Source: Erysipelotrichaceae bacterium | GTDB taxonomy: Bacteria; Bacillota_I; Bacilli_A; Erysipelotrichales; Erysipelotrichaceae | Direction: 5' to 3' | NCBI GenBank assembly: GCA_963663995.1 | Contig: OY760660.1 | Span: forward strand, 120,001 to 152,000 | DNA length: 32,000 bases | Shown: positions 5,970 to 29,880 of the stretch, piece after piece | Numbering within the stretch: the stretch's first letter is position 1 | Layout: the number at the start of each line of letters is the position of its first letter | Program-made: the position numbers and the translations under genes | Notes under the pieces: model-generated | Told to the model about the DNA's origin: nothing | Database searches by the model: none | The model's input: the letters and a program-made list of their open reading frames with translations, nothing else

Positions 5970-7500
5970 ATATCGTATTATCGATTTAGGTTAGTAAATC
6001 GATAAATTCCTTTCCTAGCCTAATTTATTTTTAAGGGATATCGTTAGGCCAATACGATATGCTTAAGTTGCACTGTGGATTTGTTTCATTTCAATACAGC
6101 TTTGACTGTTTAGGAGAAATTCTTACCACAGTTCTTTTTTTAATGTTGATAGAGTAGATGAACACTTAGATGTTTGATAAAGCACGAAATGACATGAAGA
6201 GAACGCTTGTGGGTTAAACAACAGTGCAGACAACACAAGGAGGTGTTTTTATGACCTACTGGATTGGCATCGATATTGCCAAACACAAACATGACTGTTT
6301 CATCATGAATCATCATGGTGAAGTCATCCGTGATTCCTTTTCGTTTTCAAACAATCGAAGTGGATTCACACAACTTTTAGAGATTCTTTTGTCTTTAGAC
6401 TCAACTCAAGAAAAAAGGATAGGGTTTGAGTCAACGAGTCATTACGCAATGAATCTCAAGTTTTTTCTTGATAAGAATGAATTGTCCTTTATGGAATTCA
6501 ATCCGCTTCTTGTCAAACGGTTCTCGAAGGCTAGCACCCTTCGAAAAACCAAAACCGATAAAGTAGATGCCAAACAAATCGCTTTCTACTTATCTACTGT
6601 GGAATACAAACCCTATCCAAACAAATCCTATCACATCAATCACCTGAAATCATTAACACGTCATCGTGATGATTTGATTAAACTAAGATCTGTTCAATTG
6701 GTTTATATGACCAATATGTTGGATCGCTTATTCCCTGAGTTTAAGCCCTTTTTCAAGCATTCACTTAAATCTAAGACTTGTTTATATCTCTTAGACAACT
6801 ACTCATCACCTTCAAAGCTTTCGCGAATGAATCTAGAGTCTTATCATAAGATGACTTTCTACTTTAAAGAGAACGTTATCTTATGCTCGTTTCTGTGAAC
6901 TTAAAGACTTAGCTAAGAATACGATAGGTGAAGAGGATCCCATCCTTGTCTTTCAATTGAATCAACACTTACTGGCTTACCACTTTTTGGATAAACAAGT
7001 AAATGAGGTTGAATCCTACATTACTGAAGAGTTTTCTCATATCCATACCATTAAGGGTATTGGTTTATTTTCAGCTGCCACTATCTTCTCAGAATTTGGT
7101 GGTGTAGAACGCTTTTCTTCACCTGATCAACTTTTGGCGTATGCTGGTCTTGAACCATCGCGCCATCAATCTGGAATCAGTGAATCAACAGGTTATATGG
7201 TCAAACATGGCTCACCTTACTTAAGACAATCATTAATGAATGTGTTGTAACACTCTACTCATCTATAACCCCATTCTCTATGACTACTATAAGAAGAAAC
7301 GGGATGAAGGTAAGCATCATCGTGTGTGGCACTTTCACATGTCGCCAAACGTTTAGTTCGGATCATCTATCATTTAGAAACTCATCATTGTGATTTTGAC
7401 TTAAATAAAATGGGCTAGCATTTTTCTAATCAATTCACTCATTTTTTCAATTTGTGCTCACTTGAGTTCTTTTCATCATCCGTTTATTCATCTTTTATTG
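5970..7500 (+). mobile_element. IS110-family insertion sequence relic (boundaries approximate)
   Basis: Contains a DEDD-type IS110 transposase reading frame (6251-7418) with an unusually long structured 5' non-coding arm, as is typical for the IS110 group. The left limit is guessed from the inverted repeats that start 3 nt from the VOC gene ATG. The right limit is guessed from the usual 1.1-1.56 kb family size. No terminal IRs are expected for this family. Confidence 0.5.
6251..7418 (+). pseudogene. IS110-family transposase (DEDD N-terminal domain + Transposase_20 C-terminal domain) with at least 3 frameshifts
   Basis: AAGGAGG RBS at 6236-6242. The N-terminus 'MTYWIGIDIAKHKHDCFIM' is the IS110 DEDD motif. 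'IKGIGLFSAATIFSEFGGVERFSSPDQLLAYAGLEPSRHQSG' is the C-terminal HhH motif. The frame changes near 6853, near 7245 and near 7325 (GTGTG). The last piece, 'VALSHVAKRLVRIIYHLETHHCDFDLNKMG', stops at 7416-7418. Confidence 0.85.
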
Positions 7501-7646: not shown

Positions 7647-8464
7647 TTAGAATTTTTTTCTTTTCCAGATTAGAAATAGACTTGTGATATACCCATACTG
7701 TAGTAGTATGAATTGAATCCATTCTGGTTTTGAATACCATCCAAATACTACAAATAATGGTAATCCAACTAAACCTTCTTTGTGATTTAAAACAGTACTA
7801 GATAAATCAAATGCTTTTATCAGTAACCAACTATCAGGGTTTAATAAATTAAGTGCTTTTAATGCAGATAAACCTTCATGAATAGCGTAACCAAATAAGA
7901 AACCCGCTTGTAGGATTAGGTATACTAGAGTCAAATTAAAGAGTGTTCTTAAGTTAACTTTTATCAGTGATTTATAGATTAGTAATGCGAGAACACTGGC
8001 TAAACCAACCCCAGCAATAATTGAGAGTAATGTATATTGTCCAGCAAAGCTAAAGATGGCAATTTCAGCACCTTCACGCGTCACCATGATAAAGGCAAGG
8101 CTAATTAATCCAATATGAGAAAAAACGTGTGTCTACTTGTTTATGAATATCCTCAACCATCGTTTTTGAGTGTTTCATCATCCAGTAAATAAAAGTCGTG
8201 ATAAGTACCAAAGCAATTAAACTAGTTCCACTTTCCCAAAGTTTTGATACTTCATCCGTTTTTTGTATGAATGACGATACATAATAAAGTGTTGCACCAA
8301 TTAGTATTGATGAAAAGACACCGGAAACAGCCCCATAAAAGAAAAACTTTTTATATTCATTCTTTTGAATATGTGAAAGATACTGCAAAATAATTGAAAC
8401 CACTAAAAAGGCTTCAAGCCCCTCCCTAAACCCCATAATAAATCCAGGGTACAAAGGATGTCAT
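7647..8464 (-). pseudogene. FTR1/EfeU-family iron permease, split by frameshifts
   Basis: Two adjacent ORFs each carry one RExxE iron-binding motif ('MGFREGLEAF' and 'MVTREGAEIA'). Their combined length of about 270 aa matches one 7-TM FTR1 protein. The junction lies in a T6 run on the coding strand, 'ACGTTTTTTCTC' (about 8120-8125). One base fewer gives '...VDTRFSHIGLISLAFIMVTREGAE'. A GGAG-preceded ATG at 8464 gives 'MTSFVP' and goes out of frame in a CCC run (8447-8449). Correcting it gives 'MTSFVPGFIMGFREGLEA', which closely resembles the E. coli EfeU N-terminus. Confidence 0.8.
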
Positions 8465-8781: not shown

Positions 8782-9455
8782 ATGGAGAAGACAACATTTA
8801 AAGATTTAACTGTTTTATTAGTGAAAATCGTAGCGAAGATTAATGAATACGTTGAAGAACATCAACGTAGAAGTGCAGTTGCAGCTTATTTTATTGGTAA
8901 AGAAATGAACTTATCCAATAAAGAACTCAGAGATGTTGTTATTGCGACCTCAATTCATGATGTTGGTGTTCTATCTTTAGAAGAGAGAGATGTCGTCATG
9001 AGTGAAGATGATTCACAATCAGAAGCACATTGCTTATTGGGATATGAGATGTTGTCATCTTTCAAACCATTTGAAGCGATTGCTCAAATCATCCGCTATC
9101 ACCATGCACATTATTTTGAAGGTGAACACATTGAAGACTTTAATAAAGGAAGTCTATATTGTTCACTTAGCTCATCGTATAGATACACACATTGCCCCCA
9201 AACATGTATATCTTGACTCAAAAAGATCGTATATCTAATTTGATTGAAGAACATGTCGGATCTGTTTTTGATCCAGATGCTTTTGATGCTTTCATTGCTG
9301 TTTCTAATAAAGAAAAATTTTGGACAGATATTATGGACATGAGTATTGAAGGCTTATTTGATCAATTAAACTGTGAAGACAATGTAGAAATTGATTTAGA
9401 AACACTGGCTGGTTTTGTGAAAACACTAAGCAATATTGTTGATCTAAGAAACTAA
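8782..9455 (+). pseudogene. truncated and frameshifted paralog of the HD/HD-GYP protein at 16717-17973 (N-terminal HD-like half only)
   Basis: Collinear by eye with residues 1-224 of the 418-aa paralog ('HQRRSAVAAYFIGKEMNLSNKEL...SIHDVGVLSLEERD' versus 'HHRRVAVASYHIGKKLNLSNEDL...SLHDIGALSVQERD'). Three frames are needed: a shift near 9148-9149 (GG) and a shift in the C5 run at 9195-9199. It stops at 'IVDLRN*', where the paralog continues 'IVDFRSQFTASHSY...' into the HD-GYP domain. Confidence 0.8.
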
Positions 9456-12180: not shown

Positions 12181-12783
12181 ATGTCAAAGTATGATGTCGT
12201 TATTATTGGTGGTGGTGCTTCAGGTTTATCTGCAGCAATCACTCTAGGTTCAGGTGCAGAAAAATTAGAATTTGTAGCTGATAAAAAAGTATTAGTAGTA
12301 GATGCTGGTAAATCACATTTAAAAGCTGCTCAATTATTCAATGCTGCTGGTGTTGAAAAAGGTGCTAAAGGTGTTGAACTATTAGCTGGTCTACGTGAAA
12401 GAGCTACTAGCTATCCAAATATTGAAGTTGTCGATGGAACAGTTAAAGCTGTATCTGGTAGTGCTGGTGCATTCAAAGTAAGTACTGAAGAAGTTGAATA
12501 TGATGCAGCTATCGTAGTATTTGCTACAGGTATGGCAACAATTGAAATCGACGGATTAGGAGCAAACATTGTTCCAAACAAACGTGCGACTAAACCTAAC
12601 ACTTGGATGATTGAAGGATCTGAGAGTGGAAGTATCGCTGAAGGTAAATATGTAACTGGTGTAGCTACTGGCGCATCAAGCATGTTCACTGTTGCAGCAG
12701 GTCTAGGTGCACAAACCGCAACAGACATCATTAGTTCATGGACTGACAAATATGTTGTTATCCATGATGTAAATAAAGGTTAA
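12181..12783 (+). CDS. short FAD-binding (TrxR-like FAD domain only) flavoprotein, Cys-free
   Basis: 200 aa. N-terminal dinucleotide fold 'YDVVIIGGGASGLSAAITLG', a 'VVFATG' strand, and a C-terminal 'KYVTGVATGASSMFTVAAGLGAQTATDI' FAD-closing region. There is no second Rossmann (NADPH) module and no cysteine. Own RBS and strong terminator. Codon usage is visibly biased. Confidence 0.7.
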   Translation: MSKYDVVIIGGGASGLSAAITLGSGAEKLEFVADKKVLVVDAGKSHLKAAQLFNAAGVEKGAKGVELLAGLRERATSYPNIEVVDGTVKAVSGSAGAFKVSTEEVEYDAAIVVFATGMATIEIDGLGANIVPNKRATKPNTWMIEGSESGSIAEGKYVTGVATGASSMFTVAAGLGAQTATDIISSWTDKYVVIHDVNKG

Positions 12784-19395: not shown

Positions 19396-19414
19396 AAGGA
19401 ACTTGAGTTCTTTT
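19395..19414 (+). terminator. weak terminator-like hairpin
   Basis: AAAGGAAC / GTTCTTTT around loop TTGA (with one G-U pair). The T run is part of the stem. Confidence 0.35.
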
Positions 19415-19876
19415 AATTATTAGACTTGAAAAAGTAACGAAATTTATCTCCAATAATACATGGGGTTCAAATCCTAGACTAATATTACATTATTTAACAA
19501 CATATAATATAGTTCACTAATACGATTCTCACTGCATAATAATTGTATCAAAACAATTTTTCAGAATTTTTACGATTATTTCAGAAAAATCATTGATATG
19601 TCAGAGTTTTCAGTTTGTGAAAGACAAAATGAATTACATCCATTCTTTTACTTTGTTACAATTTTGAAAGGGTTTCAATTCGAAATTAAAAAAGAATTTA
19701 TCGAAAATAATTTAACTCGAATGAGAATAAAAGAAATGGATTATTACCTCAACTCTAACTACAACATATAACTAACAAAGTATATTTTTAATTTCATTTG
19801 ATTCTTGGAAAATAAAATTTGAGATGATTGATTCAATATTGACATATTTTGAAAAAGTACATTAAACATCATTAAA

Positions 19877-19896
19877 AATAGCTCTGCAGAGCTATT
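19877..19896 (-). terminator. perfect 20-bp palindrome; terminator-like on the minus strand, or an operator
   Basis: AATAGCTC TGCA GAGCTATT is the only GC-containing island in an AT-rich gap. On the minus strand it is followed by TTTAAT, giving a run of 5 T including the stem end. On the plus strand there is no T run. Confidence 0.35.
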
Positions 19897-20246
19897 GATT
19901 AAATGCAATTTCACATATTAGATCAAAATTTGAGTTTCAGGTTAAATATATTTTTAATCCAACCATTTTAATCAAAATTTTTTAGATTGGTAGAAAAACG
20001 ATTTTTTTAATTATTTTCTTAAATATTATCCATTAATTGTCTAAAGATGAAGTTTTAATGTGATAGTTAATCAAATATAATAATTTTTTTATTATTTTGG
20101 TTTAAAATAGCACAACATTTTAGGACTATATTTTAGTAATGTCTTTTAAATTCATAAATTGAGGTCTACGATTAATTGTGAATAAGATAATTTCCTAGGT
20201 TAAAGGGAAAAATAGTTAATTTTAACAATTGAAAGGATGAATTAAA

Positions 20247-22193
20247 ATGGATTCAGGAAGAAGAAACATGTATCAAAAAAGACAAATTGCACTCATAGAA
20301 TTGTTAATTATGAGCGATCAACCTATTACAGGGTCACAATTAGCAAAAAACCTAGGTGTATCTTCACGAACGATAAGAACAGATATAGATTCTATTCAAT
20401 CGATGATAAAAGATCAAAATATATCTATAAAGGCAATGAATCCCAAAGGATACTATATTCAATCTTTAGAAAAAGAATTCTTTAAAAAAATCATTGAAGA
20501 TTTCAAATCTAATCAAAAGAAAAATATTCTTCCACAAACACCCAGTGAGCGAATGACTTTTATCCTCATTGATTTACTTCTTCATGGTAAACAATCCATG
20601 CAAGTCTTATCGGATATCTTGTATGTTACTAAGACAACCATTAACACAGATGTGAATAGACTCAATGAATCTTTATCAGAAGGTTTAGCTGAAAATTTGA
20701 TTGTTAGTGATGTTGAAGGTATTCAATTAACAGGTTATGAGTTTGAGATTCGAAAAAGAGCAGCTAGTTGGATAGTTAGAAATCAAGATCGAATGAATCC
20801 ATTAATACAAAGTTTAGAAGTTTTTGAACCACAGATAGATTTTGTGAAAAAAACAGTCAGTATTTACCAAACTTTGATTTCGATTATTGAAGAACATGAA
20901 GTGTATTTAGCAGACAAAGAAGTTGTTTATTTAATGATGTTTCTTATGTTTTCTTATTTAAGAAAACAACATTACCCACTCTCTTTCAAGTTTCAATTTA
21001 ATTCATTAAAGTGGGTTAATGATGTAATCCATCAAACTGAAAAAACTTTGGGAATCACTTGGACTGAAGATGAAGTGAATACAATACGAGGCTTCTGTGA
21101 TTCATTATCACTGGTATCATCTGAAATGGTTCAACAGGACAATAAAGAAATTATTCAACTCATTAATTTGTTCTTAGAAAAAGTTGAACATGCTTATGGC
21201 ATTGATTTAAAGGAAAATGAAAGTTTAAAACACTTTCTTTATGTACATATTCGTTCATTGTTCTATCGCTTAGAATTAAATGAGTTTGAATATAATCCTT
21301 TAAAGGATGATATTAAAAAAAAATTCCCACTTGCTACAGAAATCTCTCTCTTGTTTTATAACTTAGTTAAAAACGAGAAAAGGCTCATGATGAATGATTC
21401 AGAAATTTCATATATCGCTCTACATGTCGCATCGGCCCTAGAGATTTTGATTGAACCTAGTGAGCTCATCCTGGTTTCAAATCTTGGACAAGGTCCAACA
21501 CGATTACTCGCGACTAAACTGATTCACTTCTTTACAAATAAAATTGTCTTAAAGCATACTTATTCAATTTATCAATATGAAAAGGCAATAGAAACGAATG
21601 GTTTTGATTGTGATTTAGTCGTGAGTACTAGCCCACTCAATTCTTATCAATCGATTCCAGTTATTGTTGTAAATCCATTACTCTTTAGAGATGATTTAGC
21701 TCATCTAAAAAGATACATCAACTTTTATTCAACAGAAATGAAAAACCATGATCGGTTTTCCGAATTATTCGATGAACGTTTATATTTCAAAGCTCAGGCA
21801 GAAAACAATTCATATCTCGCGATTGTACGTTTATTAGTTAGACATCTTAAAACATTTGATTATATCGAAGATGAAGATGAATATTATGAACTTATCCTGG
21901 AGAGAGAAAAAACCTTTTCAACGATTATGGATAACGGGATAGCGATACCTCATGCGGCAGAAAATAGAAGTCGTAAAACGGTCATCGCGGTGGCTGTACT
22001 TGATGAACCACTCATTCATGAAGGTAAGAAAGTTAGTTTAATCTTATTAAATGCGATTAATGAAAAAGAAGATCTTCAAAATCTTTATCAAATGATTGAA
22101 AGAGTATTATCTTTAGACAATATTCAAGATGCTTTAAATGCATTAAATCTAAAGGAATTTATTGAAATTATTAGTCAAAAGGAGGCAAAATGA
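20247..22193 (+). CDS. LicR/MtlR-type PRD-domain transcriptional activator (HTH - PRD - PRD - EIIB-like - EIIA-2)
   Basis: 648 aa (alternative start at Met8, nt 20268, behind AGGAAG). N-terminal wHTH 'ITGSQLAKNLGVSSRTIRTDIDSI'. Two PRD-like helical regions ('HFLYVHIRSLFYRL', 'ISYIALHVASAL'). An EIIB-like segment 'LILVSNLGQGPTRLLATKL'. C-terminal EIIA-2 with 'DNGIAIPHAAEN' (His569). The stop overlaps the EIIBC start (ATGA at 22190-22193). Confidence 0.8.
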   Translation: MDSGRRNMYQKRQIALIELLIMSDQPITGSQLAKNLGVSSRTIRTDIDSIQSMIKDQNISIKAMNPKGYYIQSLEKEFFKKIIEDFKSNQKKNILPQTPSERMTFILIDLLLHGKQSMQVLSDILYVTKTTINTDVNRLNESLSEGLAENLIVSDVEGIQLTGYEFEIRKRAASWIVRNQDRMNPLIQSLEVFEPQIDFVKKTVSIYQTLISIIEEHEVYLADKEVVYLMMFLMFSYLRKQHYPLSFKFQFNSLKWVNDVIHQTEKTLGITWTEDEVNTIRGFCDSLSLVSSEMVQQDNKEIIQLINLFLEKVEHAYGIDLKENESLKHFLYVHIRSLFYRLELNEFEYNPLKDDIKKKFPLATEISLLFYNLVKNEKRLMMNDSEISYIALHVASALEILIEPSELILVSNLGQGPTRLLATKLIHFFTNKIVLKHTYSIYQYEKAIETNGFDCDLVVSTSPLNSYQSIPVIVVNPLLFRDDLAHLKRYINFYSTEMKNHDRFSELFDERLYFKAQAENNSYLAIVRLLVRHLKTFDYIEDEDEYYELILEREKTFSTIMDNGIAIPHAAENRSRKTVIAVAVLDEPLIHEGKKVSLILLNAINEKEDLQNLYQMIERVLSLDNIQDALNALNLKEFIEIISQKEAK

Positions 22194-23791
22194 GAATTTT
22201 ACTTCTATGTGCAGGTGGGTTATCAACCAGCCTTCTTGTGACTCGTATGAAAAAATATGCCAAGTCAATTGGAGAAGAACCCCTTATTGAAGCTCATCCA
22301 GTTGGCAATCTAGATGAACTCATCGACCGATTCGATGTCATTCTTCTAGGACCACAAATTAGTCATAAACTTGAAAAAATTAAAGCTCAATTTGGCCAGT
22401 TGGGAAAATTTATTCGAGTTATTGATCCCGCGGATTATGGCTTGCTCCGTGGTGATGAAGTTTATATAAAAGCCAAACTAGATTATAAATCTGGGAAAGG
22501 AAAAAAGAAGACTATGAAAGATAAAATTTTACAAGTTATATCCGACGTTACAAATCATCCGTATATTTCATCCTTACAAAAAGGATTTATGTCAGTTATT
22601 GGTATTACCATTGCTGGCGGTATATTCGCTTTATTAAAAACTCCACCATTTCCTGCAACTACAACGAGTGGGTTTGGATTAGCATGGTTAGCTTGGTCAC
22701 AAGCAAACATGTCCTGGTTACAAGTAGGTTATTCCTTAACCATGGATTTCCTTGCAGTTTATGTATTAATTGGTGCGCTCTTTGCGCTAGCTAGCCATTA
22801 TAAGATGAATAGTTTAAATCCAATTGTTATGGGATTATTGTCCTTCTTAATTCTATCTGTTAATGTTTCTTCATTTGATCCAACCAATCCATATGCCGCA
22901 ATGGGGATGACGTTGAATTTCTTAGGTGGTCAAGGTATCTTTACCGCAATTATTGTTTCCATCCTAGTTGTTGAAATGTTAAGAATATTTAAAGAAAAGA
23001 GCTTCTTAGAAATTAAATTACCTGAAGCTGTTCCTCCAATGGTTTCACAACCATTCGCATCACTTTTTCAAAATTTAGTTGTCATACTTGTCTTTGTATT
23101 AATTAGAATTATATTCTCATCTGTTGGAATGATGTTTCCACAACTCGTATTCGCCTTATTTACACCAATCTTAAAAGCTGCTGATACATTCTGGGCAGTC
23201 GTACTTCTCTTTGCATTCTCTCGTGTATTATGGTTCTTTGGAATTCATGGAACTTCAGTTATCTTTGCGGTATTAATGCCTATTGTTTTGGTTAATACAA
23301 CAGAAAACTTAACAGCTTATGCAGCTGGCGCAGCTATTCCTCATGTATTTGCAGGTGGTTTCATCCTGTTCCAAATTGGTATGCTACCTGCAGCAATTGC
23401 GATGTTAATCATTGCTCGTTCAGAACGTTTAAAAGCGGTTGCTCGATTAGGTATTGTTCCTTCATTCTTTATGATCTCTGAACCAATTTTATTTGGTACA
23501 CCTTTTGTATTAAATCCAATCCTATTTATTCCACATATTGTAGCCTTTGCATACTCTGTAGGTTTAGCTTACTTTACAATGAGCATTGGAATTGTTGGAA
23601 GACCTATTTTCTCTACACCAAATTTTGCGCCAGGTTTTATTACATCTTTCTTAACAACTGGTGATTGGAAGGCAGTTATTCTCTGGATTGTCATTGTTGC
23701 TGGTTCAGTATTAATCTACTTACCATTCCTTAAAAAATATGACAATCAATTGCTCATTGAAGAAGCAAATGAAGCAATAAAAGAAGATTAG
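22190..23791 (+). CDS. PTS lactose/cellobiose-family EIIB-EIIC fusion protein
   Basis: 533 aa. The N-terminal about 100 aa is EIIB(Cel) with 'MRILLLCAGGLSTSLLV' (Cys7 phosphorylation site). A Lys-rich linker 'KSGKGKKKT' follows, then about 430 aa of polytopic EIIC. Confidence 0.85.
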   Translation: MRILLLCAGGLSTSLLVTRMKKYAKSIGEEPLIEAHPVGNLDELIDRFDVILLGPQISHKLEKIKAQFGQLGKFIRVIDPADYGLLRGDEVYIKAKLDYKSGKGKKKTMKDKILQVISDVTNHPYISSLQKGFMSVIGITIAGGIFALLKTPPFPATTTSGFGLAWLAWSQANMSWLQVGYSLTMDFLAVYVLIGALFALASHYKMNSLNPIVMGLLSFLILSVNVSSFDPTNPYAAMGMTLNFLGGQGIFTAIIVSILVVEMLRIFKEKSFLEIKLPEAVPPMVSQPFASLFQNLVVILVFVLIRIIFSSVGMMFPQLVFALFTPILKAADTFWAVVLLFAFSRVLWFFGIHGTSVIFAVLMPIVLVNTTENLTAYAAGAAIPHVFAGGFILFQIGMLPAAIAMLIIARSERLKAVARLGIVPSFFMISEPILFGTPFVLNPILFIPHIVAFAYSVGLAYFTMSIGIVGRPIFSTPNFAPGFITSFLTTGDWKAVILWIVIVAGSVLIYLPFLKKYDNQLLIEEANEAIKED

Positions 23792-23804
23792 ACTAAATTA
23801 ATTA

Positions 23805-23831
23805 AAGGATAGAGAATGATTCTCTATCCTT
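23805..23831 (+). terminator. hairpin between the EIIBC and sulfatase genes (possible partial terminator)
   Basis: 12-bp stem AAGGATAGAGAA / TTCTCTATCCTT with loop TGA. The T run (TGTTTTT) begins only 7 nt later, so termination efficiency is uncertain. Confidence 0.45.
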
Positions 23832-23903
23832 ACTTATGTTTTTAATTTTGAATATGGATTATTTATTAGTCTGTATTCAAAAGGTTAGAACCTAGGAGGC
23901 ACT

Positions 23904-25664
23904 TTGAAAGCTGTACAAGTAATGTTTGACACTTTAAGTCGTAGATTTTTATCAATTTATGGAAATGATTGGGTACAGACTCCCAATTTTGAACGTTTGG
24001 CACGGAAAGCCACCGTCCATAATCGTTTCTTTGCAGGTTCATTGCCTTGTATACCTGCACGAAGAGAACTCCATACCGGTCGTTATAACTTTTTACATCG
24101 ATCATGGGGACCTTTAGAACCTTTTGATTTTTCAGTCATTGAGACACTCAAGAAAAAAGGTGTGTATACTCATCTAATCACAGATCATTCTCATTATTTT
24201 GAAGATGGGGGAGCAACCTATCATAATCGTTTTAATACATGGGAAGCTTATAGAGGCCAAGAAGGGGATCGTTGGGTTCCAACTTTAGATCCAAGTATCA
24301 TTGATATTCCTACTCAAGCATCGACCAATAAAAAGGGTGAGTCACTCAAACATAATTATGCAAATAGAACAAGACAAACTTCAGAATTTGAAATGTCTTC
24401 TGTTAGAACAGTATTAGCTGGATGTGAGTTTATTGATCAATTTAATCAAAATGACTCATGGTTTCTACAAATTGAATGTTTTGACCCTCATGAACCTTTT
24501 TTTGTTCCACAAAAATATTTAGACTTATATGAAGATCATTATGTAGGGGACGTTTTTGATTGGCCACCTTATTCACCGATTACAACTGAAACACCTGAGC
24601 AACAAGAACATGTGATTAAACGCTATGCTGCTTTAATCACCATGTGTGATACTTATTTGGGCAAAGTTTTAGATAAATTTGATGAATATGATTTATGGAA
24701 AGATACACTCCTTATTGTTAATACAGATCATGGTTTCTTAATGGGTGAACATGAATGGTATGGTAAAAATATCCAACCGATGTATAACGAAGTGGCACAT
24801 CTACCATTTGTCATTTATGACCCTCGCACAGAAAATGATTCATTTTCAAATGATTTAAGTCGTAGTATTGATATTGCCCCAACGTTACTTGATTTTTTTA
24901 ACTTAGACATACCTAAAGTAGTCCAAGGAAAAGTAATTAATAAAGAGCATAAAGTAGAAGATGCACTTTTTGGTATGTTTGGTATGCAAGTGAATATCAC
25001 TGATGGTCATTATGTCTATATGCGAGGACCAATTCGTCCTAAAAATGAACCATTATTTGAATATACTTTAATGCCTACACGAATGCGTGGCTTTGTTGAG
25101 ATCCGTAATCTTCAAAAAACAACCCTTCAAGAAGCCTTTAACTTTACAAGTGGACTGCCTTTATTAAAGATTCCAACTGGATCTTTTATGAATCCATATC
25201 GTTATGGACATAAGTTATTCAATATTGATGAAGACTATGAGCAAATAAAACCGCTCGATGATCTAAAACTTGAGCTTCATTTTTTAAATAAACTAAAAGA
25301 TGCAATGAAGGAAAATGATGCACCTCTTGAACAATATCAACGTTTAGGATTAAACATCAGTGAAGATATGACTTTAGAACAACTTTTAGCTCAAAGAGCA
25401 CTAAGAAAAGAAGACATGAAAGTTGATATTGGTATCGAACTAACATCTAAACAAGAAGCTCAAATAAGATTAATTCGTGAAATGATGCCTGAAAAGCTCT
25501 ATGTTCAGTTTGAATTAGATTTAAAACTAGCGTTTTCTAGAACATCAGATCCTGATATTGTCATTCAAAGTTCAATCAAACAATTTACTGAGATGATGCG
25601 TTTGCCTGAAAAAGCATTACCGATGATACTCAACATGTTTGAAACAGCTGACAAAGATGATTAA
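23904..25664 (+). CDS. Cys-type sulfatase-family protein, cytoplasmic (no signal peptide)
   Basis: 586 aa from TTG (23904), 4 nt after AGGAGG (23894-23899). An in-frame stop at 23886 prevents a longer N-terminus. Sulfatase signature I 'LPCIPARRELHTGRY' matches C-x-P-x-R-x4-T-G-R (Cys49, nt 24048-24050). There is an N-terminal metal-ligand Asp in 'VMFDTL', then 'IVNTDHGFLMGEHEWYGKN' (DHG...GK). No hydrophobic leader. Confidence 0.8.
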   Translation: MKAVQVMFDTLSRRFLSIYGNDWVQTPNFERLARKATVHNRFFAGSLPCIPARRELHTGRYNFLHRSWGPLEPFDFSVIETLKKKGVYTHLITDHSHYFEDGGATYHNRFNTWEAYRGQEGDRWVPTLDPSIIDIPTQASTNKKGESLKHNYANRTRQTSEFEMSSVRTVLAGCEFIDQFNQNDSWFLQIECFDPHEPFFVPQKYLDLYEDHYVGDVFDWPPYSPITTETPEQQEHVIKRYAALITMCDTYLGKVLDKFDEYDLWKDTLLIVNTDHGFLMGEHEWYGKNIQPMYNEVAHLPFVIYDPRTENDSFSNDLSRSIDIAPTLLDFFNLDIPKVVQGKVINKEHKVEDALFGMFGMQVNITDGHYVYMRGPIRPKNEPLFEYTLMPTRMRGFVEIRNLQKTTLQEAFNFTSGLPLLKIPTGSFMNPYRYGHKLFNIDEDYEQIKPLDDLKLELHFLNKLKDAMKENDAPLEQYQRLGLNISEDMTLEQLLAQRALRKEDMKVDIGIELTSKQEAQIRLIREMMPEKLYVQFELDLKLAFSRTSDPDIVIQSSIKQFTEMMRLPEKALPMILNMFETADKDD

Positions 25665-25667
25665 ATG

Positions 25668-25712
25668 AAAAAACACCTTACTCATCAACATGTAATGTGA
25701 ATAAGGTGTTTT
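25668..25712. terminator. bidirectional terminator shared by the sulfatase gene and tyrA
   Basis: AAAAAACACCTTA (25668-25680) / TAAGGTGTTTT (25702-25712), with an A run on the left and a T run on the right. The right arm overlaps the tyrA stop codon. The loop is long at 21 nt. Confidence 0.55.
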
Positions 25713-26557: not shown

Positions 26558-27832
26558 TTAATTCTCTTCTTTTAGTGTAAGCGAAATATTTACTTTTTGA
26601 CAATCATCAAAGAAAGCAGGGTAGGACTTATTGACACATTCTGACCCATTAATAATAGTGGAAGAATTAGAACATGTACTTGCGATGGTTAAGGCCATCG
26701 CAATACGGTGATCTGTATGACCTGACAATTCTTGTGTACATTTTAAGTTAGATGAACCGGTGATAAACATTTCATCATCACGTGCTTCAACATTAATAGA
26801 AAATTTATTTAATTCTTCTTGCATAGAAGCAATACGATCAGATTCTTTTAATCTAAGGCGTGAGGCATTAATGATATGTGTTTTACCTTCAGCAAAAGCC
26901 GCAATCACCGTTAAGATTGGTCCTAAGTCAGGACAATTGCTTAAATCAATTTCAGTCGCACTTAGTTTGGATGTTTGAATATGATAGCCATTTTCAATTT
27001 CACGTATGTTTGCACCCATTCTTTTTAAGATATCTAAGATTTCTTTATCCCCTTGAAGTGAATCATGACGCATGCCTAGGATATCTAAGTCACCTTTGAT
27101 TGAGGCAAGTGCTGCAAAGAAAGCAAACTGTGAAAAGTCGCCTTCAACACTATACTTTCTTGCTTGATAGTTTTGATTGCCTTTTATAAATAGAGTTAAA
27201 TCATCTGTGAATTTTAATTCAACTCCAAAATCAGCTAAAGTTTGGAGAGTTAAATCAACATAGGACTTAGATTCAAAAGGAGGCTTAATTTTAATAATAG
27301 AATCTTCTTTTAGTAAAGGTAATGTGAAAAGTAAACCAGTAATAAATTGTGAACTGACATCACCATCAATATGATATTCTCCAGCGCTTATTGCACCATC
27401 AACACTTATTCTTTCAGTTGTATGAGAAAAAGGGATATTTCTTTCGCTAAAGAGTTTTTCATAAATACTTTGTGGACGATGAAGTAAACGATTACGTCCG
27501 ATAAAAGTTACTTTCTCATTAGCAAGTGAAAAAAGTGGTATCAAAAAACGCAAGGTAGATCCAGATTCAATACAATCAATTTCTTTATCTTTAAGTTTTA
27601 TTTGATTATTTACACCATCAATCGTAAGGGTTTTACCATCTCTAACAATCTTTGCGCCAATACTTTCCATCGCGGAAATGGTCGCATGCATGTCATCAGA
27701 TGTATCGATGTTATGAACGATACTACGACCGTTGGCAATACAAGCACAAATAATCGCTCGATGAGCAATACTTTTAGATGGTGGGATGATGACTGATCCA
27801 TGTGCTGTTGATGGATTGATCAATGCTTGCAT
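26558..27832 (-). CDS. aroA: 3-phosphoshikimate 1-carboxyvinyltransferase (EPSP synthase)
   Basis: 424 aa. Motifs 'PPSKSIAHRA', 'GSTLRFL', 'LRLKESDRI' and 'DHRIAMAL'. The start ATG overlaps the stop of the upstream DAHP synthase (TAATG at 27832). Confidence 0.9.
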   Translation of the reverse strand: MQALINPSTAHGSVIIPPSKSIAHRAIICACIANGRSIVHNIDTSDDMHATISAMESIGAKIVRDGKTLTIDGVNNQIKLKDKEIDCIESGSTLRFLIPLFSLANEKVTFIGRNRLLHRPQSIYEKLFSERNIPFSHTTERISVDGAISAGEYHIDGDVSSQFITGLLFTLPLLKEDSIIKIKPPFESKSYVDLTLQTLADFGVELKFTDDLTLFIKGNQNYQARKYSVEGDFSQFAFFAALASIKGDLDILGMRHDSLQGDKEILDILKRMGANIREIENGYHIQTSKLSATEIDLSNCPDLGPILTVIAAFAEGKTHIINASRLRLKESDRIASMQEELNKFSINVEARDDEMFITGSSNLKCTQELSGHTDHRIAMALTIASTCSNSSTIINGSECVNKSYPAFFDDCQKVNISLTLKEEN

Positions 27833-28848
27833 TACATATCCCGGCCAATAACTTTGGCGATTTGTTTTCCTTTAGTGATGATATCTTCAAACATTTGTGG
27901 CGTCACAGTTTGTTCACCATCTGACCATGCATTTTCAGGATCTTCGTGCACTTCAATAATTAAACCATCACAACCAGCGGCAATAGCTGCTAAAGCAATT
28001 GGTTCAACTAAATCTCTATAACCAGTCGCATGGGATGGGTCAATAATAATAGGTAAGTGAGTACGAGCTTTAATAATAGGCACAACACTTAAATCTAGAG
28101 TATTACGTGTGTATTTTTCAAAGGTACGAATACCACGCTCACATAAAATAACATTAGGGTTACCTTCAGACATAATGTACTCAGCAGACATAATCCATTC
28201 TTCAATCGTGTTTGAAAATCCACGTTTTAAAAGTATTGGTTTCTTTGTTTTACCAACCGCTTTAAGTAAATCAAAGTTTTGCATATTACGTGCACCAATT
28301 TGAATTAAATCAACATTTTCAACAAATTCATCTAATTTATCTACACTCATAAGTTCTGAAACAACTGGTAAATGTGTTTTACCTTTAGCTTCATTCATCC
28401 AATCTAAACCAATTTTTCCATTGCCTTGAAATGAGTAAGGCGATGTACGAGGTTTATAAGCACCACCACGCAACATATTACCACCCGCAGCTTTTACTTT
28501 GTCTGCAATAGAAATGGTATTATCATGAGTTTCAATTGAACATGGACCACCAATGATGACAATCTTCTCTTTACCTCCAACTTTTACACCAGCTACGTCA
28601 ACAACCGTATCTTCTGGATGAAAAAGACGGTTTGCTTTCTTATAAGGGGCTGAAATACGACGTACTTCATCGACCCAATGATGCGCTAAGATTGAATTTG
28701 GATCAATCGCCGTTGTATCACCCACTAAACCTAGAATGGTATAGTCTTTACCTTGTGATAAATGAACTTCACAGCCTTTACTTCTAATAAATTCTTCCAT
28801 CTTCTGAATCTCAGATTGTGGACATCCTTTTTTCATTGATATAATCAT
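27832..28848 (-). CDS. aroF: 3-deoxy-7-phosphoheptulonate (DAHP) synthase, type I-beta with an N-terminal ferredoxin-like regulatory domain (copy 1)
   Basis: 338 aa, the same length and layout as the Thermotoga-type enzyme. The first about 65 aa form a regulatory module. The catalytic barrel carries 'GPCSIE', 'LRGGAYKPRTSPYSFQG', 'IGARNMQNF', 'LKRG' and 'IIDPSHATG'. Confidence 0.9.
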   Translation of the reverse strand: MIISMKKGCPQSEIQKMEEFIRSKGCEVHLSQGKDYTILGLVGDTTAIDPNSILAHHWVDEVRRISAPYKKANRLFHPEDTVVDVAGVKVGGKEKIVIIGGPCSIETHDNTISIADKVKAAGGNMLRGGAYKPRTSPYSFQGNGKIGLDWMNEAKGKTHLPVVSELMSVDKLDEFVENVDLIQIGARNMQNFDLLKAVGKTKKPILLKRGFSNTIEEWIMSAEYIMSEGNPNVILCERGIRTFEKYTRNTLDLSVVPIIKARTHLPIIIDPSHATGYRDLVEPIALAAIAAGCDGLIIEVHEDPENAWSDGEQTVTPQMFEDIITKGKQIAKVIGRDM

Positions 28849-28863
28849 AATTTTTTCCTCTAT

Positions 28864-29880
28864 TTACATTTTTCTGCCAATAACTTCAGCAATTTTTCTT
28901 CCTTTTACAATAATGTCTTTAAACATTTCAGGGGTTACTGTTTGTTCACCATCAGACCATGCGTTTTCAGGATCTTCATGAACTTCAATAATTAAACCAT
29001 CACAACCAGCAGCAATCGCCGCTAAAGCAATCGGTTCAACTAATCTTCGATAACCAGTCGCATGGGATGGATCAATCACAATTGGTAAATGTGTGCGTTC
29101 TTTAATAATCGGCACAACACTCAAATCTAAAGTGTTTCGTGTGTACTTTTCAAAGGTACGTATCCCACGTTCACATAAGATTACATTTGGGTTGCCATTA
29201 GCCATAATATACTCAGCTGACATAATCCATTCTTCTATGGTGTTCGAGAAACCACGTTTTAAAAGTATTGGTTTTTGTGTTCTACCAACCGCTTTGAGTA
29301 AATCAAAGTTTTGCATATTACGAGCACCAATTTGAATTAGATCTACATTTTCAACAAACTCATCGAGTTTATCAATCGACATAAGTTCACTGACAATTGG
29401 CATTTTTGTGATCGATTTAGCTTCATTCATCCAATCTAATCCTACTTTACCATTGCCTTGGAATGAATAAGGGGATGTACGAGGTTTATAAGCGCCACCA
29501 CGTAACATATCAGCCCCTGCATCTTTAACTTCTTTCGCAATACTAATTGTATTAGCTTTAGTTTCAATGGAACAAGGACCACCCATAATGACGATCTTTT
29601 CATTTCCACCGATTTTAACACCAGCGACGTCTACCACTGTATCTTCAGGATGGAATAAACGATTGGCCTTTTTATAAGGGGCAGAAACACGTTGAACATT
29701 TTCAACATTGTGATGAGCCATAATATTGTTTGGATCAATAACAGTTGTATCACCAATTAAGCCAATAATACTTTGGTTTTCACCAAAAATAATTTGTGTG
29801 TGTAAACCTAAACCTTCACAGTACTCCGCCATTTTTTCGACTTCTATTTTTGGCGTTCCTTTTTTCATGGATATAATCAT
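28864..29880 (-). CDS. aroF: DAHP synthase, type I-beta with an N-terminal regulatory domain (copy 2)
   Basis: 338 aa and collinear with copy 1 without gaps. It has the same catalytic motifs. The same leader plus start, 'AAAAATTATGATTATATC', precedes both copies. Confidence 0.9.
   Translation of the reverse strand: MIISMKKGTPKIEVEKMAEYCEGLGLHTQIIFGENQSIIGLIGDTTVIDPNNIMAHHNVENVQRVSAPYKKANRLFHPEDTVVDVAGVKIGGNEKIVIMGGPCSIETKANTISIAKEVKDAGADMLRGGAYKPRTSPYSFQGNGKVGLDWMNEAKSITKMPIVSELMSIDKLDEFVENVDLIQIGARNMQNFDLLKAVGRTQKPILLKRGFSNTIEEWIMSAEYIMANGNPNVILCERGIRTFEKYTRNTLDLSVVPIIKERTHLPIVIDPSHATGYRRLVEPIALAAIAAGCDGLIIEVHEDPENAWSDGEQTVTPEMFKDIIVKGRKIAEVIGRKM

Follow-up and report, generated by a model that had tools for sequence, protein, structure and literature searches.

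A phosphotransferase system (PTS) encoded beside a sulfatase is already known from an accessory island of pneumococci, in which a ROK regulator, a Lac-family 'cellobiose' PTS, a sulfatase, a sulfatase-modifying enzyme and TauE occur together (McAllister et al. 2012, PMC3283741; SPH1922-1930 in the genomic study of Bidossi et al. 2012, PMC3302838). Deletions in the island attenuate colonization and lung infection in mice (McAllister et al. 2012, PMC3283741). In this work, we describe a unit of three genes at positions 20247-25664 of a 32-kb stretch of DNA from a gut-type Erysipelotrichaceae bacterium (contig OY760660.1; the whole stretch is hereafter called the window). The unit consists of three co-oriented open reading frames (ORFs), located where an earlier note on this DNA had placed them, which encode a PRD activator, a fused EIIB-EIIC transporter and a predicted sulfatase of the formylglycine type without a leader. 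Like the pneumococcal island, the window has a Lac/Cel-family PTS beside a sulfatase and no glycosidase. The island differs in its regulator, a ROK/MarR repressor, in its two EIICs and its separate EIIA and EIIB, and in the presence of a ComA-like gene, a radical-SAM maturase and TauE. In the window, the regulator is a PRD activator, EIIB and EIIC are fused, and EIIA, maturase and TauE are lacking. Judging from gene content and homology, we find it reasonably probable that the trio is a catabolic module for the PTS import, phosphorylation and cytoplasmic desulfation of a sulfated beta-glycoside, most likely a beta-glucoside. The PTS-sulfatase unit as such had been sighted before; the pointer to sulfated beta-glucosides is new.

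The regulator class, transporter family and gene order of the window are also those of the licRBCAH operon of Bacillus subtilis and of cel and bgl operons, which combine a PRD activator or a BglG antiterminator with a beta-glucoside PTS and a 6-phospho-beta-glucosidase. In the window, however, the sulfatase takes the position of the phospho-beta-glucosidase, and the EIIA is missing. Another partial parallel is the ats2 cluster of Bifidobacterium breve for N-acetylglucosamine-6-sulfate (GlcNAc-6-sulfate), which, according to what Egan and co-workers reportedly found in 2016, is made up of a transporter, the intracellular sulfatase AtsA2 and the anaerobic sulfatase-maturating enzyme (anSME) AtsB2. 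As in our proposal, the intact sulfated sugar enters the cell and loses its sulfate in the cytoplasm, through a Cys-type sulfatase that has no leader and is matured by an anSME. Uptake, however, is by a non-PTS route, and the substrate is unphosphorylated on entry.

According to the earlier note, a sugar that is both sulfated and phosphorylated by a PTS is no textbook pathway intermediate. As a claim that precedents are lacking, this was overstated in view of the pneumococcal island (PMC3283741, PMC3302838) and of work on sinigrin. In Companilactobacillus farciminis, the beta-glucoside PTS CfPttS imports and phosphorylates sinigrin, and the GH1 enzyme CfPbgS cleaves the resulting sinigrin-6-phosphate (PMC8660893), so that an intermediate carrying both groups is documented. 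This pathway shares with our proposal the PTS uptake and 6-phosphorylation of a sulfated beta-(thio)glucoside. It differs in having no sulfatase, the sulfate leaving spontaneously after GH1 cleavage with formation of the isothiocyanate, and in its PTS, which belongs to the Glc/Bgl family whereas that of the window is Lac/Cel. A review on glucosinolates in the gut describes the bacterial sulfatases that make desulfo-glucosinolates as unidentified (PMC6767122). The Mn-arylsulfatase of Enterococcus faecium (PMC12421950) and ydeNM of Escherichia coli (PMC10878103) were also considered and have no bearing on PTS linkage.

The core idea of the earlier note, that a PTS permease is coupled to a cytoplasmic formylglycine sulfatase, is supported by the synteny of the trio, by PTS linkage among close relatives, by the clade that the linked sulfatases form and by the adjacency of maturases and exporters. 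Two scans of sequence collections yielded 166 loci of the sulfatase family, of which 140 had 3 kb or more of flanking sequence. When the sulfatase protein alone served as query, a metagenome scan returned no relatives, and its repeat used an alignment as query. The relatives looked up were the ten closest sulfatases with usable contigs, and PTS genes adjoin the sulfatase in all of them (10/10). One relative, L001, whose sulfatase is 69% identical, has the same trio in wholly other surroundings, with AnmK, ABC and PASTA genes on one flank and proA and proB on the opposite one. Synteny elsewhere, a question raised in the earlier note, is thus borne out, and the occurrence of the trio between unlike neighbours indicates that it travels as a unit.

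When 158 sulfatases were joined by average linkage on pairwise identity, which gives a dendrogram and not a true phylogeny, the PTS-linked ones formed a group of 26, at least 23 of them with an adjoining PTS. For the 130 outside this group, no PTS lies within 6 kb. This non-PTS majority comes from Paenibacillus, Streptomyces and Chloroflexota, and also from Asgard archaea, and its neighbours are ABC sugar transporters, GPH/MFS permeases, GH3 enzymes and ROK, LacI or PadR regulators. In terms of gene content, then, PTS linkage defines a clade of predicted leaderless sulfatases across three PTS superfamilies (Lac/Cel, Glc/Bgl and Man), which is a new observation.

Among the 140 loci with sufficient flank, an anSME is adjacent in 27 and a formylglycine-generating enzyme (FGE) in 29, that is, one or the other in 56, which argues that these sulfatases are formylglycine enzymes. 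The identities of these maturases were confirmed. In at least 10 loci the operon also includes a TauE/SafE-type anion exporter, as would fit the release of a sulfur oxyanion in the cytoplasm. Related loci with anSME and TauE genes are L058, L003, L103, L170 and L168.

The PTS-linked loci come in several arrangements. In variant A, that of the window's clade (L082/83, L084, L085 and L171), a PRD activator is followed by EIIB, EIIC, EIIA(Cel) and the sulfatase; an anSME lies 6 kb from the sulfatase in one relative of this type. Variant B is composed of EIIC(Lac), LacI and the sulfatase, followed by TauE and an anSME in L058 and accompanied in L012 by an anSME upstream, on the opposite strand. 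Variant C runs from a BglG/LicT antiterminator through a beta-glucoside EIIBCA to the sulfatase, an anSME, TauE and an FGE; its EIIBCA scores 756 and 705 bits against TIGR01995 (cutoff 615). In variant D, a Glc-family EIIBC with or without a separate EIIA(Glc) precedes the sulfatase and an anSME, with TauE in one of two examples, and in variant E a mannose-family EIIABCD lies between two sulfatases, with an anSME, TauE and LacAB nearby. Both Lac/Cel-type and Bgl-type PTSs occur in the subclade to which the window sulfatase belongs, and the form with a PRD activator, a fused IIBC and no IIA is a new variant of the PTS-sulfatase unit.

In guts and soils, sulfated glycans and glycosides such as mucins, glycosaminoglycans, algal polymers and glucosinolates play a major part as nutrients and signals, and the bacterial desulfation known so far is mostly extracellular or periplasmic and has mostly been studied in Bacteroidota. 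Based on our data, Bacillota and a few other lineages carry a widespread operon class in which a PTS permease is wired to a predicted cytoplasmic formylglycine sulfatase, often with maturases and a TauE exporter. At least by gene organization, this class takes in the virulence-associated island of pneumococci. Among the cultured bacteria that carry such operons are Paenibacillus massiliensis DSM 16942, as well as Clostridium intestinale and Sebaldella termitidis.

Two observations concern the wider sulfatase family. Members at approximately 46-49% identity are present in metagenome-assembled genomes of Thorarchaeota and Promethearchaeota (L020 and L048, Asgard; L014), a level of identity across domains of life that is unusual for a substrate-specific hydrolase. 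Moreover, in five family loci a small SCP2/alkyl-sulfatase-C-like protein is encoded two genes downstream of the sulfatase.

A second, unrelated type of leaderless S1 sulfatase was also found wired to PTS genes (L168:14411-15853, L171:6338-7822, L008:18528-19988 and L012:4729-6375), sometimes in the same locus as the first. It is approximately 19% identical to the window enzyme and has a C-V-P-S-R motif, and its copy in L168 scores 748 bits against the NCBIfam arylsulfatase model PRK13759 (cutoff 481). Thus, at least two sulfatase subfamilies seem to have given rise to cytoplasmic desulfation coupled to a PTS.

The nature of the substrate is suggested by the operons closest to that of the window. 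The gene order is BglG, EIIBCA, sulfatase and GH1 in L166 (Anaerorhabdus; GH1 assigned by Pfam only), EIIBCA, sulfatase and GH1 in L086 (human gut), and GH1, EIIBCA and sulfatase in L088. For the GH1 enzymes of L086 and L088 the best models are those of 6-phospho-beta-glucosidase, with scores just under the curated cutoffs. All three loci belong to the window's subclade or border on it, and each amounts to a full bgl operon into which a sulfatase has been inserted. A GH1 or GH4 6-phospho-beta-glucosidase also lies within 5 kb in L082 and L058, and there is none in the window. The presence of cellobiose-like Lac-family and Bgl-subfamily PTSs and of GH1 within the operon points to a sulfated beta-glucoside, and in this way the transporter types, with the GH1 of several versions, narrow the substrate search to that class.

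The suggestion in the earlier note of a ring sulfate like that of mucin or chondroitin fragments finds no support in this context, which gives host glycans no particular preference, since the associated PTSs are of beta-glucoside types and sometimes occur with a GH1 6-phospho-beta-glucosidase. By the same evidence, the sulfate could equally sit on the aglycone, an arrangement that fits just as well and leaves the 6-OH free. Candidates of this kind could be sulfated phenolic glucosides or glucosinolates, the latter being beta-thioglucosides with an N-O-sulfate on the aglycone. GlcNAc-6-sulfate was considered as a substrate of the PTS versions and rejected, because a sulfated O6 could not be the site of PTS phosphorylation. 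Ring-sulfated sugars are possible, especially for the mannose-family version with LacAB. This version is represented by the Sebaldella-like locus L168 (7915-17871), which encodes LacA/LacB (galactose-6-phosphate isomerase), RpiR, a sulfatase, mannose-family EIIA, EIIB, EIIC and EIID, a second sulfatase, an anSME and TauE. Its gene content suggests a route for sulfated galactose or hexosamine, distinct from the beta-glucoside versions.

In the model that we favour, the PRD activator, its state set by PTS phosphorylation as in other members of its family, would turn the operon on during transport of the substrate. The fused EIIB-EIIC would import the compound and phosphorylate a free 6-OH, with the phosphate coming from an EIIA(Cel) encoded elsewhere in the genome. 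A maturase, likewise encoded elsewhere, would convert Cys49 of the sulfatase to formylglycine, and the enzyme would then free sulfate in the cytoplasm, either from the phosphorylated compound or from the sulfated aglycone after its release. A general 6-phospho-beta-glucosidase and glycolysis would finish the desulfated phospho-glycoside, and the sulfate would exit the cell. The identity of the substrate, the order of the reactions, the EIIA and maturase acting in trans and the read-through of a hairpin between the second and third genes (see below) are the parts of the model that we infer. Action in trans is common for EIIA(Cel) proteins and for anSMEs.

The first gene of the unit (20247-22193, forward strand, 648 aa), identified from its ORF and Pfam matches, encodes a protein that matches HTH_11 (1e-15), Mga (5e-9), PRD (6e-17, residues 309-397) and PTS_EIIA_2 (1e-20, residues 517-644), and also, with a score below the cutoff, the NCBIfam AcpB/EbpR/MafR model over residues 201-492. 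By these matches it appears to be an activator with a PRD, of the LicR/MtlR/ManR type, with an N-terminal HTH_11/Mga region and a C-terminal EIIA(Mtl/Fru)-type domain. The domain order proposed earlier, HTH-PRD-PRD-EIIB-like-EIIA2, holds for the HTH, one PRD and the EIIA2, but Pfam gave no match for a second PRD or an EIIB-like domain. Orthologues with 40-68% identity lead the same operon in L001, L082/83, L084 and L085. An RNA-binding antiterminator acting on the hairpin between the second and third genes was considered and rejected, because the regulator carries a DNA-binding HTH instead of a CAT_RBD domain; BglG-type antiterminators were found only in the bgl-type relatives.

The type of regulator bears on the idea that the sulfated sugar is imported mainly for sulfate assimilation, in an AtsA-like role under sulfate starvation, and not for its carbon. 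Leaderless sulfatases with dedicated importers do serve sulfur scavenging, as in the AtsA/AtsRBC system of Pseudomonas, and some members of the family adjoin non-sugar genes (PadR, MFS_1 and SCP2). Nevertheless, a PRD activator, or BglG in the relatives, responds to PTS sugar flux and not to sulfur status. Furthermore, the presence of TauE-type exporters in 10 loci points to disposal of the sulfur oxyanion and not to its retention, and GH1 phospho-beta-glucosidases share operons with the sulfatase. We therefore give sulfur scavenging a small chance of being the main role of the unit.

The second gene (22190-23791, forward strand, 533 aa), identified by its ORF, Pfam and NCBIfam, begins within the end of the first, the start codon of EIIBC and the stop codon of the regulator forming an ATGA overlap (GGAGGCAAAATGAGA) with GGAGG located 5 nt 5' of the start; reading of the sequence bears out the overlap described in the earlier note. 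Its product has an EIIB part at approximately aa 1-100, a Lys-rich linker and an EIIC part at approximately aa 113-532, with matches to PTS_IIB (PF02302, 2e-10) and PTS_EIIC (PF02378, 1e-42) and a score of 245.8 bits against TIGR00410 lacE (cutoff 236). Cys7 of the EIIB part, in LLLCAGGLSTS, aligns with the active-site Cys of 2l2q. The EIIC part aligns with bcChbC (3qnq; 1.7e-49, residues 113-532) and keeps the His of GIHG and the Glu of I-S/N-E, which we take to be the residues beside the sugar 6-OH (H250 and E334 of bcChbC, the latter in an I-x-E motif). On this evidence the transporter is a PTS Enzyme II of the Lac/Cel family (TC 4.A.3), with an EIIC of the lacE/celB subfamily.

The cognate EIIA(Cel) (PF02255) was not found in the window. 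Neither Pfam on ORFs of at least 100 aa nor six-frame tblastn revealed an EIIA(Cel), glycosidase, anSME, FGE or TauE in the 32 kb, in agreement with the absence of EIIA(Cel), glycosidase and maturase reported earlier. Additionally, a query with an Erysipelotrichaceae anSME gave no match on the source contig among the best 120 matches listed.

A 112-nt spacer separates the EIIBC stop from the sulfatase start. In this spacer the terminator scan located a terminator-like hairpin that the earlier note had overlooked (23805-23831, forward strand) with a 12-bp stem and a 3-nt loop (-15.6 kcal/mol, z = -4.7), and a T-rich tract starts approximately 7 nt past the stem. L001 has a hairpin at the equivalent spot; the core GATAGAG...CTCTATC is common to both, and the top of the stem carries paired substitutions. 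In the more distant relatives L082, L084, L085 and L171, the same spot between EIIC and sulfatase is occupied by the EIIA(Cel) gene (PF02255), and EIIB and EIIC are separate, overlapping genes. Because of this arrangement in the distant relatives, we read the architecture of the window as derived: the ancestral module includes EIIA(Cel), and in the window and L001 the IIB and IIC are fused and the IIA is replaced by a conserved hairpin. As for the earlier view of one autoregulated unit, the sulfatase is set apart from the transporter by the conserved hairpin, so that a single unit would require read-through.

Such a history raises the alternative that the window copy is a decaying or rewired remnant, in which transporter and sulfatase no longer work together, or at all. 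EIIA(Cel), which the more distant relatives keep, is missing in both the window and L001, the terminator-like hairpin sits in its place, and Pfam and tblastn found no maturase in the window. However, all three genes are intact in the window and L001 at dS >1, with dN/dS values against L001 of 0.10 for the regulator, 0.13 for EIIBC and 0.17 for the sulfatase. This range (0.10-0.17) is that of purifying selection and argues that the module is not a wreck. Moreover, all the catalytic residues of the sulfatase are kept, the hairpin is itself conserved with paired changes, and the missing EIIA and maturase are of kinds that commonly work in trans. A remnant is accordingly an improbable explanation.

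The third gene (23904-25664, forward strand, 586 aa) starts with TTG, which aligns with the ATG of the closest relative, and was identified by its ORF and Pfam. Its product matches PF00884 over residues 4-333 (2e-29, 103.1 bits, cutoff 25). The formylglycine signature C49-I-P-A-R-RELH-T-G-R, whose codons are read directly at 24048-24083 of the forward strand, and the motif D275-H276-G...G287-K288 are present as the earlier note described. C49, which the note took for the nucleophile, aligns with the nucleophile position of 4upl, 4uph and 4upi, its three best matches among solved structures. It is invariant in 34 homologues from several phyla, as are P51, A52, R53, D9, H196, D275, H276 and K288, and by homology we take D9, H196, D275, H276 and K288 to be metal-binding or catalytic residues. 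A departure from the sulfatase canon is that the Lys of the K-x-H motif is apparently His95 here, according to our reading of D94-H95-S96-H97.

The absence of a leader was likewise confirmed. In the alignment and in the AlphaFold2 model (pLDDT 89.3), the N-terminus enters directly into the first beta strand, which bears the metal-binding D9, begins at residue 2 and has the same start in all members of the family, leaving no room for a signal peptide or lipobox. The catalytic region (approximately aa 1-350) is followed by a C-terminal subdomain (approximately aa 350-485) and a variable helical tail (aa 490-586). This tail (25371-25664) is a predicted helix bundle, poorly conserved and missing in the family forms of approximately 490 aa. 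Based on these features, the 586-aa protein is predicted to be a leaderless S1 sulfatase of the formylglycine type.

Among the sulfatases of the dendrogram, residues 96, 123, 126, 147, 192 and 302 are conserved in at least 80% of the 26 in the PTS clade but occur in no more than 15% of the 130 others. Among them are S96, within D-H-S-H, R123, and C192, beside F-D-P-H, all close to the active-site motifs. Such residues may mark an altered substrate pocket, perhaps one for phosphate, although the hint is a weak one. It is conceivable, if rather unlikely, that the PTS-linked sulfatases act on 6-phosphorylated sulfated beta-glucosides such as glucosinolates, with R123, S96 and others, beside the catalytic histidines, forming a phosphate pocket. 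If a 6-phospho-glucosinolate lost its sulfate ahead of GH1 cleavage, its aglycone would end up as harmless nitriles and not as isothiocyanates, and this would be the long-sought bacterial glucosinolate sulfatase step. Action on a phosphorylated substrate would also represent a new sulfatase specificity, the first for a sugar phosphate.

Structural comparison has a bearing on whether the enzyme releases sulfate at all. The top 50 matches of the model in the PDB, as found with Foldseek, are S1 sulfatases and phosphonate monoester hydrolases (PMHs) only (probability 1.00, TM 0.55-0.70, identity 13-20%), and carbohydrate sulfatases rank on top. By sequence, the best solved matches (approximately 18-25% identity) are the arylsulfatases 4upl and 4upi mixed with the PMHs 4uph and 4upk. 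The comparisons thus place the enzyme clearly with neither group; grouping with PMHs had been named in the earlier note as grounds against a sulfatase. The structures 4upi, 4upl, 4uph, 2vqr and 2w8s represent the arylsulfatase/PMH clade of van Loo and colleagues (SpAS1/2, AtPMH, RlPMH and BcPMH). The members of this clade, which match by sequence at E 1e-23 to 1e-15, are formylglycine enzymes of the cytoplasm, as is predicted for the window enzyme, and their nucleophile occupies the position aligned with C49. In structural alignment, however, they share only approximately 16-18% identity with it, at TM of approximately 0.55-0.63. We know of no link between them and sugar transporters.

The enzyme could accordingly be a PMH-type phosphoester or phosphonate hydrolase that acts on the PTS phosphate or on a phosphodiester-linked sugar, with no sulfate involved. 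The arylsulfatase/PMH clade (4upl, 4uph, 4upk, 2vqr and 2w8s) supplies its best solved sequence matches, the NCBIfam PehA model matches at 3e-29, far below its cutoff, and the K-x-H lysine is apparently replaced by His95. We regard this as having only a slight probability, mainly because the repeated operon partnership with TauE sulfite/sulfate-type exporters speaks for a sulfur oxyanion as product. In addition, identity to PMHs in structural alignments is as low as mentioned above, true carbohydrate sulfatases score as well structurally, and stripping off the PTS phosphate would waste the phosphoenolpyruvate spent.

Returning to the catabolic module, several points weigh against it. The sulfatase clade is known from genes alone, and its nearest solved sequence relatives include promiscuous PMHs. 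In the pneumococcal island, no sulfatase activity on 4-methylumbelliferyl sulfate was detected, and cooperation of PTS and sulfatase on a sulfated sugar was raised and left open by the authors (PMC3283741). L168 is coupled to a mannose-family PTS with LacAB adjacent, so that the substrate class is not uniformly beta-glucosidic. In the window itself, EIIA(Cel), maturase, glycosidase and TauE exporter are lacking, a terminator-like hairpin stands between the transporter and sulfatase genes, and the sulfatase gene has no evident promoter of its own. The hairpin and the lack of a glycosidase might even be taken to mean that an independent sulfatase gene lies by chance 3' of a cellobiose-type PTS, but linkage in 10/10 close relatives, with three unrelated PTS superfamilies and in one sulfatase clade only, makes adjacency without shared function very improbable.

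The boundaries of the unit are those drawn in the earlier note, an AT-rich gap on the left and a terminator-like hairpin for both strands on the right. The gap (19396-20246, 851 bp, GC 23-24%), which presumably holds the promoter and operator of the unit, is non-coding, with no convincing ORF and none longer than 57 aa. It contains only weak repeats, and Rfam gave zero matches over the whole window, the gap included. A cre-box search returned 9 matches against approximately 3.9 expected, none of them convincing near the promoter. The matching gap in L001 measures only approximately 145 bp. A perfect palindrome (ATAGCTCTGCAGAGCTAT) without a T tail lies in the middle of the 851-bp gap, at 19877-19899, approximately 480 nt 3' of a metallophosphoesterase gene and approximately 350 nt 5' of the regulator.

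On the right, the hairpin at 25670-25712 folds on both strands (-15.2 kcal/mol on the forward strand and -19.5 on the reverse; z = -4.6 and -5.6, respectively), has U tails on both and lies between the convergent sulfatase and prephenate-dehydrogenase genes. It was missed by a simple terminator scan because its loop is too long; its folding energy and U runs make it a plausible bidirectional terminator that closes the unit.

Some features of the rest of the window may also be mentioned. The Tex protein encoded there shares 77% identity with proteins from metagenome-assembled genomes of Erysipelotrichaceae. An IS110-family transposase ORF (6224-6898, forward strand, 224 aa, GTG start) has the N-terminal DEDD domain only and is probably a truncated insertion sequence. 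In its vicinity, an HD-domain ORF is truncated (8782-9216) and a pyridine-nucleotide-disulfide oxidoreductase is represented by a 200-aa fragment (12181-12783). An FTR1-family iron permease (7647-8454, reverse strand) is split into adjacent ORFs of 117 aa and 146 aa that correspond to the N- and C-terminal halves of the Pfam model, probably because of a frameshift, in a pseudogene, or of a sequencing error. Finally, two tandem genes for 3-deoxy-D-arabino-heptulosonate 7-phosphate (DAHP) synthase (27832-29880, reverse strand), of 338 aa each and 81% identical to each other, are located in an aromatic amino-acid cluster that comprises tyrA, aroA, aroQ, an aroE-aroK fusion (427 aa) and aroC.

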